Below, one piece after another: positions 6,986-9,821 of a stretch of 27,773 bases of DNA (its first letter is position 1; each line of letters starts with the position of its first letter). A program made the position numbers and the translations under genes. Below the pieces are notes generated by a model. That model did no database searches and was not told where the DNA came from. It worked only from the letters and a program-made list of their open reading frames with translations. Source of the DNA: a virus (Duplodnaviria; Heunggongvirae; Uroviricota; Caudoviricetes); IMG/VR virus record IMGVR_UViG_2531839178_000008, positions 1-27,773 of that record; one strand, given 5' to 3'.

Positions 6986-7000
6986 GCGCTTTGTCAGCGC
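6986..7000 (-). promoter_or_regulatory. nutL boxB hairpin
   Basis: Leftward transcript carries GCGCUGACAAAGCGC (GCGC stem, UGACAAA loop), the P22-type boxB as recalled, between pL and N. Confidence 0.65.
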
Positions 7001-7061
7001 CGTAGATTCATATTCGAATCGTTGTATATTCACCGCCCTGGTGAGTAGTGCGTCCTGCTGA

Positions 7062-7110
7062 TGGCTTAAAGATAACCTAGGTTATAGCGGTGGTCAATAA
7101 CTTAATTTAT
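7062..7110 (-). promoter_or_regulatory. pL promoter with OL operators
   Basis: Leftward -35 TTGACC (7092..7097), 17-bp spacer, -10 TATCTT (7069..7074). Perfect palindrome ATAACCTAGGTTAT (7072..7085) overlaps the -10 and an imperfect ATAACTTAATTTAT (7097..7110) overlaps the -35. Confidence 0.55.
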
Positions 7111-7277
7111 GGATTCTGATAAATAAGTTATAAGTGATGGATAATAAAGGTATTTTATTTTTGTAAATGTTGCGGATTGGTCGGTATTGGAAGGGGGGCG
7201 CTGTATTGCTGGCGTGTTGGTTCGTGGTTTACCGCATTTGCGGCTGTTAAATATGGGGGACGATCGCGAGGCAAAGA

Positions 7278-7301
7278 AAACCCGGCGCGGAAGCCGGGTT
7301 T
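7278..7301 (-). terminator. intrinsic terminator hairpin closing the immunity-region transcript before pL
   Basis: AAACCCGGC-GCGGAA-GCCGGGTTT, a 9-bp GC-rich stem with A/T-rich flanks on both sides (possibly bidirectional). Confidence 0.5.
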
Positions 7302-7316
7302 GAGATTTAGTTATTT

Positions 7317-7451
7317 TCAGCAGCTCGGATAAGAGCGGAAGTGCTGACGAACATGTTCGAGCTCACCGAAACGTATGCGGCAGTAACTGCGCACATAAAC
7401 CGGCTTGTCGTGTTCGTAGATGAAGTCATCGCGATTAACATCGTGAGCCAT
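7317..7451 (-). CDS. small ORF (44 aa) in the immunity region
   Basis: ATG at 7451 with AGGAG 8 nt upstream; MAHDVNRDDFIYEHDKPVYVRSYCRIRFGELEHVRQHFRSYPSC; not in the supplied ORF track, which lists overlapping frames instead. Confidence 0.4.
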   Translation of the reverse strand: MAHDVNRDDFIYEHDKPVYVRSYCRIRFGELEHVRQHFRSYPSC

Positions 7452-7602
7452 AGCTTTTCTCCTGTTTTTGTATACAGCCTGTTTACCCGAACAGGTTGTA
7501 GTTTGTTGGGAGAACCGCTATCCTTGGCTTGCGGTTGCCAAGGGTGTAGCGGTAGGTAATCCTCCATACACTTCGGAAATACTGGATATATTTCCGACCC
7601 AA

Positions 7603-7626
7603 AAAGCCCCGTTCCCTCGGGGCTTT
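7603..7626 (-). terminator. intrinsic terminator after the 63-aa gene
   Basis: AAAGCCCCG-TTCCCT-CGGGGCTTT, a 9-bp stem overlapping the stop codon at 7625..7627 and followed by a U-run on the leftward transcript. Confidence 0.55.
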
Positions 7627-7816
7627 ATTCTTTTGTTCCGCCATCAATCATCGCAAAAGATTCCACAATCAGACTGATACGCTTGGCTTCATCTTTTGTC
7701 AGGTCGCGAGGCAGGTTGCCAATGGTGACGATAAGATCTCCGCGCAATGGAATCGGCAGTTCAAATGTTTTTACACCAACCTGTACGTCAGCTACCGCCT
7801 TCTTCTTAGGTGCCAT
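7625..7816 (-). CDS. hypothetical protein (63 aa) in the cI-to-pL slot
   Basis: ATG at 7816 with AAGGAG upstream; MAPKKKAVADVQVGVKTFELPIPLRGDL...; ends at the terminator hairpin. Confidence 0.5.
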   Translation of the reverse strand: MAPKKKAVADVQVGVKTFELPIPLRGDLIVTIGNLPRDLTKDEAKRISLIVESFAMIDGGTKE

Positions 7817-8157
7817 CTTTTTACGCTCCTTTTTTTATTTACATCACCAACTGACACATTAATCTCACCATTCTGGTAGGAGATAAATTTATCAATAGCA
7901 CTTTGCATTCGGCTTTTGTATGCCTGCAAAGATGATTCAGAAGGTTTGCTTTCTGCTGAGTCTGCGTACGAACTTGCTAAGTTGGCAACGCTATAATCAC
8001 GGATATCGGCATCGGTGAAATCCGACCCAAGAACAGTAAGAAGGCGCAGGGAAGAGTCACGGAGATTGCGGGCTGTAGCATCATTGACGATACCAAGCTC
8101 AGGAAGCATCTGTAAGAAGTCCTGAAATGCTTTGATGGTGTAGCTTTTGGTTTGCAT
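7792..8157 (-). CDS. hypothetical protein (121 aa) in the cI-to-pL slot
   Basis: Protein-like composition; ATG at 8157 lies directly after a hairpin plus U6 with no ribosome-binding site. The 3' end overlaps the next gene across an A7 run (7830..7836); one extra A would fuse the two ORFs. Confidence 0.45.
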   Translation of the reverse strand: MQTKSYTIKAFQDFLQMLPELGIVNDATARNLRDSSLRLLTVLGSDFTDADIRDYSVANLASSYADSAESKPSESSLQAYKSRMQSAIDKFISYQNGEINVSVGDVNKKRSVKRWHLRRRR

Positions 8158-8184
8158 AAAAAAGCCTCATACAGTTGATGAGGC
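8158..8184 (-). terminator. hairpin plus U6 immediately upstream of the 121-aa ORF start (terminator or attenuator)
   Basis: Leftward RNA GCCUCAU-CAACUGU-AUGAGGC followed by UUUUUU and then AUG. Confidence 0.45.
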
Positions 8185-8346
8185 AATACTAATTTGATCG
8201 TCAAAACAAATCAAGACCCAAGAAACGATCGTTGATTCCTTTCTTTGTGACAATACAGTCAAATCAAGTTTTACAAGGATTACTTTTCTTCGATTACATT
8301 AAAGGCCGCACTTCTGCGACCATCCATCACCAAAATGTCTCTTCAC

Positions 8347-8688
8347 TCATCCGAAGAAGCAGCAATCCGGGTCAGCACGCACAAGCTCAAGCGCATCAGT
8401 CAGCGAAAGTTCAGTACTGTACTGATGCCATTTCATATCCTTCCGCATCCAATAGATTTTCCATCTATCCAGAGAACGTATGTACTTGATTCTTGCTGAT
8501 GGCAGGATGTTTGTTTCACCTGGGTTGCCCTGCCACACGGGGCGCTGTTCGCCGATATCTATCGTTTGGTCATTGATGCTATAAACAATATCCAGTTCAT
8601 TGCGGATATGTTCAGGCGGCCTTATGCTTTCAATGAATTGGTGAACTTCTTTTTTGACCGCTTGATATTCAAGGTCAGTGAACGCCAT
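8347..8688 (-). CDS. hypothetical protein (113 aa) directly downstream of the repressor gene
   Basis: ATG at 8688 with GAGGAGG 5 nt upstream, 37 bp after the repressor stop on the same strand; no family recognised. Confidence 0.6.
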   Translation of the reverse strand: MAFTDLEYQAVKKEVHQFIESIRPPEHIRNELDIVYSINDQTIDIGEQRPVWQGNPGETNILPSARIKYIRSLDRWKIYWMRKDMKWHQYSTELSLTDALELVRADPDCCFFG

Positions 8689-8725
8689 CTATCCTCCTCA
8701 CCCAAACGTTTCTTCAGGCCACTGG

Positions 8726-9432
8726 TTACCAGCTATGCGATGACCAGAATACTCTGCCAATAATCCTTACGGTTTTATGAAATTCATCTCTATCCATTAC
8801 TTCATCCGGGTACTCTTCGCGATTTATTGATCTGATTATCACCGATGTAGGAGTGGCGATTAATGTTTTTACTCGCAACAAATCAGACTGGCAAATAGCG
8901 TAGGTTTTACCATCTCTGATGGTGGTATCTTGTGTGTTAACACCAACAACATCGCCATCGTGAAGAGTTGGTTCCATGCTTTGACCTGTTACCCTTACCA
9001 GCTTGGCAGAACTTTCAGTTACCCCCATCTTTTTCAGATAGTACTTTCTGAAAACCAAAGAGAACTCTGATGATTCTTCTATCTCGCAGCTACCGCTTCC
9101 AGCCGAAAGCGAAACGTTAAGAAGAGGCAATGCGACAAACTCGTCATCGTTTTTTTAATGTCTTCCCATACCACAGCTTTTAAAGATGACTCACGGATAT
9201 TGGATGGTTCTTCATGTGTACCATCCCTCATTTCACCAATACCAGAACTAAGCCATTCAGGGCGTACTTTTAAAGCATTAGCTAACTCAACCATCTTGCG
9301 AGATCCGTTTGTTTTACCGGATGACATCTTCTGTATGGCTGGCTGAGATATTCCAACCATGTCCGCAAGCTGTGATTGCGACACCCCTGCCGATCTCATG
9401 GCTGCATTTAGTCTTTCTGCGAATGTTTTCAT
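8726..9432 (-). pseudogene. cI: cI-like repressor (XRE-type HTH plus S24 LexA-like peptidase domain) interrupted by a frameshift
   Basis: N-terminal frame from ATG 9432 encodes the HTH domain (QSQLADMVGISQPAIQKMSSGK). A second frame (8726..9130) encodes ...LPLLNVSLSAGSGS... with Ala-Gly and GQSMEPTL (S24 Ser motif). The frames meet at an A7 run (coding strand; + strand T7 at 9150..9156); one extra A gives a continuous repressor. Confidence 0.8.
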
Positions 9433-9444
9433 ATCCACAAATCT

Positions 9445-9520
9445 ATAACTACGGTTATCCAAAGTAAAATAATAAAGGTTATTGCTATCTTTTATAACTT
9501 GGGTTATCCTTGGTTATAAG
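9445..9520. promoter_or_regulatory. OR operator region with divergent promoters
   Basis: Palindromic sites ATAACTACGGTTAT (9445..9458) and ATAACTTGGGTTAT (9494..9507), plus AATAAAGGTTATT (9471..9483) and a partial site at 9510..9520; putative pR -35 TTGCTA (9482..9487) and -10 TATCCT (9505..9510). Confidence 0.6.
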
Positions 9521-9543
9521 TAATGACTGAAAGAGGTATGCTC

Positions 9544-9768
9544 ATGAATTTAGTAATTCAACGAGCCTTGAAGATTGTCGGTAGTCAAAAGCGGCTTGCC
9601 GACAAGTGTGGTGTAACGCAGCCAGCAGTACACAAATGGCTGAAAGGCGGGCAGGTTTCTCCAGAGAAAGTTACCGCCATCGTTAACGCCACTGGAGGGC
9701 AGATCAAGGCTTACGAAATTCGCCCAGATTTACCACACCTGTTTCCAAAACCGAATCAGGCAGCATAA
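9544..9768 (+). CDS. cro: Cro-like DNA-binding protein (YdaS-type HTH)
   Basis: Divergent from the repressor; AGAGG 7 nt upstream of ATG 9544; HTH segment SQKRLADKCGVTQPAVHKWLKG. Confidence 0.7.
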   Translation: MNLVIQRALKIVGSQKRLADKCGVTQPAVHKWLKGGQVSPEKVTAIVNATGGQIKAYEIRPDLPHLFPKPNQAA

Positions 9769-9806
9769 GTAACACCGCTATTTTCACAATGGGCATTCGT
9801 CCTACG

Positions 9807-9821
9807 TCGCTGACAAAGCGA
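9807..9821 (+). promoter_or_regulatory. nutR boxB hairpin
   Basis: TCGCTGACAAAGCGA, same UGACAAA loop as the nutL element, between cro and cII. Confidence 0.6.

Follow-up and report, generated by a model that had tools for sequence, protein, structure and literature searches.

Transcription-terminator readthrough that depends on the antiterminator N has been demonstrated experimentally for phage H-19B, whose N protein acts on its own nutR site, in assays that used NusA and NusG (PMC3526286, PMC4499122). The H-19B nutR consists of boxA, spacer and boxB and contains two hairpins, the spacer being the region bound by NusA and Rho, and nutR/tR1 serves as a Rho-dependent terminator (PMC3526286). 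In the protein, the arginine-rich motif (ARM) 12-RSRRRER-18 is essential, and the boundaries of the ARM and of the C-terminal domain (CTD) have been defined (PMC3526286); the CTD (residues 101–127) is required away from nut, with in vitro activity when NusA and NusG are present (PMC3526286, PMC4499122). The stretch of DNA analysed here, referred to as the window, comprises 27,773 nucleotides (IMG/VR record IMGVR_UViG_2531839178_000008, positions 1 to 27,773, Caudoviricetes) and harbors an N gene together with one boxB-type hairpin in each of two early leaders. These elements very probably make up the module for N/nut processive antitermination in an E. coli prophage of the lambdoid H-19B/933W type; their positions and folds, covariation, and identity in sequence to the system studied experimentally are shown here. 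The relevant features of the left and right leaders are listed below; both leaders were compared against the H-19B, 933W, P22 and lambda records, and the same sequences are labeled nutL and nutR in the GenBank record of 933W (AF125520).

6437..6820, minus strand: gene for the N antiterminator (127 aa), with the ARM 12-RSRRRER-18 and the C-terminal RNA polymerase-binding tail LPNVALYAAGYRKSKQLTAR
6829..6980, minus strand: structured N leader with a long-range stem (5′ arm about 6980..6954, 3′ arm about 6853..6829)
6986..7000, minus strand: boxB of nutL, GCGCU-GACAA-AGCGC, the same as P22 boxB-left and H-19B/933W boxB-left
7001..7020, minus strand: nutL spacer, consisting of the hairpin GAUUC-GAAUAU-GAAUC (7020..7005) followed by UACG (7004..7001)
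7031..7043, minus strand: predicted 5′ leader hairpin of the pL transcript, CACC-AGGGC-GGUG
7044..7052, minus strand: leader segment CGCACUACU, equivalent of the start of the 933W nutL feature
near 7062, minus strand: probable transcription start (+1) of pL, with ATCAGCAGGACGC conserved in the lambda and P22 pL transcripts
7069..7097, minus strand: pL-like promoter from a promoter scan, TTGACC-17-TATCTT
7074..7087, minus strand: operator-like ATAACCTAGGTTAT, read from the sequence
9523..9768, plus strand: cro (Pfam matches YdaS_toxin, HTH_3 and P22_Cro), with its stop codon immediately before nutR
9776..9784, plus strand: degenerate boxA of nutR, CGCUAUUUU, the canonical CGCUCUUU with the change C5A, 7 nt past the cro stop
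9785..9806, plus strand: nutR spacer, consisting of CACAAU, the hairpin GGGC-AUUC-GUCC (9791..9802) and UACG (9803..9806)
9807..9821, plus strand: boxB of nutR, UCGCU-GACAA-AGCGA, the same as H-19B and 933W boxB-right
9846..9874, plus strand: hairpin of the tR1 region between nutR and cII, which folds and is the first terminator region for N to override
9907..10206, plus strand: cII (Pfam Phage_CII, 119 bits), the first gene past nutR/tR1

The two hairpins had been pointed out in a preliminary description of this DNA, and they lie where and as it placed them, reading GCGCTGACAAAGCGC on the minus strand (7000..6986) and TCGCTGACAAAGCGA on the plus strand (9807..9821). Each folds into a stem of 5 bp capped by the 5-nt loop GACAA (left, −8.5 kcal/mol, z −3.5; right, −6.4 kcal/mol, z −2.4), so the loop proper is shorter than the UGACAAA given there, the outer letters forming the closing U-A pair. 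Allowing for one mismatch at most, the 27.8-kb window contains their common 13-mer CGCTGACAAAGCG exactly twice; dinucleotide shuffles give an expectation of 0.04, and two matches were obtained in none of 100 shuffles. Each early transcript carries a single sense-oriented boxB: the left one (nutL) stands between the pL-like promoter and N, and the right one (nutR) between the cro stop and cII, a placement that matches lambda, P22, H-19B and 933W, and the proposed positional equivalence to known nut sites is borne out. The transcript start bases ATCAGCAGGACGC are common to lambda, P22, H-19B and the window and set the +1 near 7062, which puts boxB-left at about +63. The homologous position of the tR1-region hairpin is annotated 'putative tR1' in epsilon34. 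Rfam contains no nut or boxB family, and a scan of the whole window at gathering thresholds returned no match at either site.

The similarity to H-19B and 933W extends well beyond the hairpins. By tblastn, Stx2 (Shiga toxin 2) phage 86 and several phages of the Stx1a and Stx2a types encode an N protein 100% identical to this one; identity is 99.2% with N of 933W and 98.4% with N of H-19B. The left leader is identical to that of H-19B from the +1 through boxB and for 25 nt past it, and identity of nutL through boxB also extends to 933W and Stx2 phage 86. With H-19B and 933W the window further shares the degenerate nutR boxA, the spacer hairpin with UACG, boxB-right and the gene orders pL-nutL-N and cro-nutR-tR1-cII. 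It differs from them by one change between boxA and boxB of nutR, an A-to-G substitution in the spacer stem, and about four further downstream (about five in ~150 nt), by a frameshift in cI, and by an inter-nut immunity cassette (cI, cro, operators and accessory genes) of another type, also present in phage SH2026Stx1 and in a small number of E. coli prophages. Over 3.9 kb, a chromosomal prophage of E. coli matches the region at 99.9%, and 2,242 of 5,426 complete E. coli genomes contain parts of it. Both boxB cores are present in 75 of 80 IMG/VR loci with near-identical N, and the cro and pL-upstream sequences (immunity cassettes) of these 75 are of at least five different kinds; the immunity cassette between the N-nutL and nutR-cII segments can thus be exchanged while the two segments remain matched to each other. 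The module is thus already known, is essentially the same as the dissected H-19B/933W system and opens no new question.

The N open reading frame (ORF) directly follows the pL-like promoter and its leader and is the first in the pL operon; its product is a small basic protein with an N-terminal ARM. It matches Pfam PF25694 (N_peptide) at 58.5 bits (cutoff 27.9) over residues 2–127, as well as PHROG 271, 'anti-termination protein N-like', in keeping with the N-family membership that had been proposed for it, and the protein already bears the NCBI name 'transcriptional antitermination N peptide'. PF25694 is the P22-type family and includes P22 gp24 (152 bits), while lambda N is a member of PF11438 (N36); in BLASTP, the ARM region alone aligns with lambda N, and weakly (E 0.012). 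A search of PDB sequences with N (phmmer) gave a single chance match (E 1.5) and did not recover the P22 N peptide entry.

That N shares its Pfam family with gp24, and that boxB-left is the same as that of P22 (GCGCUGACAAAGCGC, 15 of 15 positions), raises the question of whether this is a genuine P22 gene-24-type system, with a canonical boxA that was overlooked and full dependence on Nus factors as in P22. Such a reading also finds support in the C terminus, where BLASTP aligns 21 of 30 residues (70%, E 1 × 10^−10) with gp24, as the preliminary description had anticipated; the tail VALYAAG(H/Y)RKSKQ(I/L)TAR is nearly identical in the two proteins, their ARM cores (GN-x3-RR-x-ER) are similar, and in both boxB hairpins of the window a U-A pair atop a G/C stem closes the P22-type pentaloop GACAA. 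However, residues about 27–98 of N do not align with gp24: the central ~70 residues are unrelated, the protein is 27 residues longer than gp24, and homology across the whole length is not found in spite of the common Pfam family, the near-identity of N being instead to the H-19B type (98–100%). The nut sites differ as well, in that P22 has the canonical boxA CGCUCUUUA at both of them, separated from boxB by an unstructured spacer of 10–11 nt without a hairpin, and a boxB-right of its own, CCGCCGACAACGCGG (CCGCC-GACAA-CGCGG). A canonical boxA with a short unstructured spacer is present at neither site in the window, and a P22-type system is therefore very improbable. 'P22-like', as the locus was first described, fits the ARM, boxB and the last ~30 residues of N; it does not fit the middle of N or the nut-site architecture, which are of the H-19B type. 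Nor was the locus first recognized as the H-19B/933W system, which is already known and where boxA is expected to be weak or missing.

The preliminary description also found no convincing boxA. This holds for nutL, where the best 9-mer in the 62-nt left leader agrees at 5 of 9 positions, a score reached by 4,323 of 5,000 shuffles (86%). It does not hold for nutR, where CGCTATTTT (9776..9784) agrees with the CGCTCTTTA of P22 at 7 of 9 positions (reached by 328 of 5,000 shuffles) and has the same offset from the cro stop, 7 nt, as the CGCTCTTA of lambda; this is a real boxA homologue. It lies 22 nt upstream of boxB, and neither site follows the general lambdoid arrangement, in which each boxB is preceded at a few nucleotides by boxA (CGCUCUU(U)A); this departure is characteristic of the H-19B subtype. 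The window, H-19B and 933W all have the C5A form at nutR. Across the 75 IMG/VR loci, position 5 (9780 in the window) is polymorphic, A versus C, with both main alleles found within single immunity types, as follows.

CGCTATTTT: 46 of 75 loci
CGCTCTTTT, with the canonical C: 27 of 75 loci
CACTCTTTT, with G2A: 2 of 75 loci

Antitermination by N in lambda is inhibited by the boxA changes G2U, C5A and U6G, which also strongly lower the affinity for NusB-NusE (PMC3177189). A nutL without boxA, the C5A change at nutR and the A/C polymorphism among relatives are together consistent with independence from boxA, NusB and S10, and we infer that this allele would function independently of boxA, NusB and NusE (S10).

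The leader segment CGCACUACU (7044..7052) was considered as a candidate boxA-left and rejected, as it aligns with the lambda non-boxA leader segment CGCACUGAC and scores 5 of 9. Separately, the nutL feature of 933W (AF125520, 9614..9680) begins at CGCATTACT (CGCAYTACT), as if this were boxA; that start aligns with CGCACTGAC of lambda, near the 5′ end of the pL transcript and upstream of the real lambda boxA.

Both nut sites contain an additional small hairpin followed by UACG directly before boxB, which is the spacer dyad symmetry expected of the H-19B subtype. It is the spacer hairpin of H-19B, which Neely and Friedman (2000) reportedly named the 'reducer'; they are also reported to have found BOXA, NusB and S10 dispensable for H-19B N. 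The arrangement of hairpin, 4 nt and boxB was predicted by ViennaRNA at all 16 nut sites of relatives examined and in neither lambda nor P22. At nutL, the loop of this hairpin varies (GAAUAU, AAAUAU, AAGCAA, AAACAU, AGUGAU, AGAGAU) on a constant stem, and VT2-Sakai has the unrelated stem GUCGA-CUC-UCGAC in the same place; at nutR, the stem is GGAC in most relatives, and the A-to-G change in the window (6 of 75 loci) turns an A-U into a G-U pair. These observations indicate that it is the structure, and not the sequence, that is conserved at this place in the spacer. Without its hairpin, the nutR spacer measures ~10 nt, comparable to that of lambda (9 nt) and P22 (10 nt).

Phages with N of the VT2-Sakai/epsilon34/S135 type share the [boxA]-ACAAC-hairpin-UACG-boxB architecture and the C-terminal tail of N; their nutR spacer hairpin is identical, GGAC-AUUC-GUCC. 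They differ from the window in having a GAAA tetraloop in boxB, equal to the loop of the window minus its C, and in an ARM with RRAA/RRAN versus RLKAKALANGV. VT2-Sakai also keeps a near-canonical boxA at both of its sites, with GCUCUUUAAACAAC at nutL where the window has GGUGAAUAUACAAC.

The module has the logic and the positions of lambda and shares with it the bases that open the pL transcript, the hairpin in the 5′ leader, the boxC-like GGGGUGUG, the long N-leader stem and the distance of boxA-right from the cro stop. By contrast, lambda has boxB stems of GCCCU/AGGGC with the loops GAAAA/GAAGA, and a functional boxA, CGCUCUUA, at both sites, 7–9 nt from boxB and without a spacer hairpin. 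The left leader of the window (6815..7062, minus strand) folds at −86.2 kcal/mol (z −4.2), with none of 200 shuffles as good. The 3′ arm of the N-leader stem sits just upstream of the N Shine-Dalgarno sequence, and its 5′ arm contains the boxC-like GGGGUGUGGUG (6966..6956). This stem corresponds to the lambda N-leader hairpin, the RNase III-sensitive one, in which similar sequence (CUUUGGGGUGUGUG ... CCACACACCACCAAAG) is found.

Because the IMG/VR search yielded only N proteins at least 99% identical, which are informative on population polymorphism and not on deep covariation, more distant relatives were drawn from GenBank phage records. Stem pairs were tabulated manually in register; a MAFFT alignment of nutL mis-registered 14-nt boxB variants. 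Compensatory changes occur among these more distant family members at three of the five pairs of the boxB stems. An ARM residue also co-varies with the boxB loop across the phages compared, as follows (the entry for Oslo refers to its nutR; the loop of its nutL is GUCAA).

Window, H-19B and Oslo: loop GACAA; Lys in the aligned place of the P22 Arg, which contacts the flipped-out C
P22: loop GACAA; Arg contacting the flipped-out C
S135, epsilon34, SI8 and VT2-Sakai: loop GAAA, a true tetraloop; Ala at the aligned position

The contact of the P22 Arg with the flipped C has been described from PDB 1A4T (PMC12550061). The co-variation, which comprises few independent lineages, supports P22-like recognition, and the Lys/Arg-versus-Ala switch in the ARM, which tracks GACAA versus GAAA loops, may be the specificity determinant.

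These elements are best explained by the pathway already known for the H-19B type. The leftward transcript from pL (starting at about 7062) and the rightward transcript from pR, which passes through cro, would each present a GACAA-pentaloop boxB, to which N would bind through its ARM. By analogy with the P22 N–boxB complex, the loop would take a GNRA-like fold with the C flipped out, and the recognition geometry would be P22-like. N would recruit NusA to the spacer, its C-terminal tail (101–127) contacting or modifying RNA polymerase near the RNA exit channel, while the spacer hairpin and UACG just upstream of boxB would shorten the effective spacer, in place of a good boxA. The modified polymerase would then read through tR1 (9846..9874) and later terminators into cII and the replication genes, and, leftward, pass terminators into the recombination genes.

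Several points weigh against this reading. The function of the module would follow from sequence-level evidence; pR was not called in a simple sigma-70 promoter scan; with P22 gp24, BLASTP aligns the last 30 residues of N alone; and the likeness of the two ARMs amounts to 7 of 18 identities, aligned by eye. Finally, the frameshift in cI may mean that the element is defective, even though N is intact, as are both nut sites.

The repressor gene bears on a further alternative, namely that the prophage is a decayed remnant in which N and the nut sites are no longer selected or functional. The gene for this LexA-like repressor (8726..9462, minus strand; HTH_3 and Peptidase_S24) is in two pieces, a helix-turn-helix piece (9079..9462) and an S24 peptidase piece (8726..9130), owing to a 1-nt homopolymer deletion at about 9150..9156, where the window has a run of A7; in eight relatives with the same immunity, the run is A8 and the ORF is intact. 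The indel may be genuine and inactivating, or it may be a sequencing error in the homopolymer. Decay would likewise accord with a nutR boxA change that is inactivating in lambda; the same C5A boxA, however, is carried by the functional phages H-19B and 933W. Moreover, the N ORF is intact and encodes a product 100% identical to N of viable Stx phages, nutL and the boxB of nutR are the same as in H-19B, and the single change in the spacer stem preserves pairing, all of which makes decay of the module even less probable than a P22-type system. A working H-19B/933W-type N/nut module remains by far the best account of the locus.

The surroundings are those of a textbook lambdoid immunity region, and the following features complete it.

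between pL and cI: accessory genes, including a DUF3024 gene (Pfam)
downstream of cII: replication genes

Three small ORFs between cI/DUF3024 and pL (7625..8157 and 7317..7451, both minus strand; 121, 63 and 44 aa) gave no Pfam match. A strong terminator-like hairpin, read from the sequence, lies at about 7270..7300, where tM is annotated in 933W. Immediately downstream of N is a gene with nucleotide modification associated domain 5 (Nmad5; 5752..6435, minus strand; PF18757, 239.6 bits), a position at which H-19B and 933W have different genes, and further along the pL operon the cIII start region matches Rfam Lambda_thermo, the cIII thermoregulator (5601..5659, minus strand, 88.5 bits). On the right, a 968-aa Toprim/AAA_25 primase-helicase-like replication protein (11229..14135, plus strand) is interrupted by an intein-like insert with a weak Hom_end_hint match (residues 379–424, 23.9 bits, where the cutoff is 32.1) and a LAGLIDADG_3 match above its cutoff (residues 579–634, 31.7 bits). 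Rfam matches to c4-a1b1 targets, isrK and C4 antisense RNA at 15806..16003 (plus strand) indicate a P1/P7-type antisense immunity module inside the lambdoid prophage. Two tandem tRNA genes lie at 19263..19415 (plus strand; Rfam tRNA, 55 and 61 bits); Stx phages carry tRNA genes upstream of stx.

Beyond placing the locus in a known system, the comparison contributes small increments: that the nutR boxA is polymorphic at position 5, which is critical for NusB, that the 'boxA-left' of 933W-style annotation needs correcting, and that ARM and boxB loop co-vary. For the annotation of prophages it helps to have N and its nut sites labeled correctly, as N antitermination gates delayed-early expression and ultimately Q and the toxin or lysis genes in Stx-type phages. 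It seems rather unlikely, if worth stating, that the nutR boxA represents a standing functional polymorphism in the Stx-phage population (~60% C5A, including the window, and ~36% canonical C5); were this so, with alleles differing in Nus-factor dependence or in readthrough toward Q and stx, a single base could set early-gene and toxin expression to different levels in phages that are otherwise the same.

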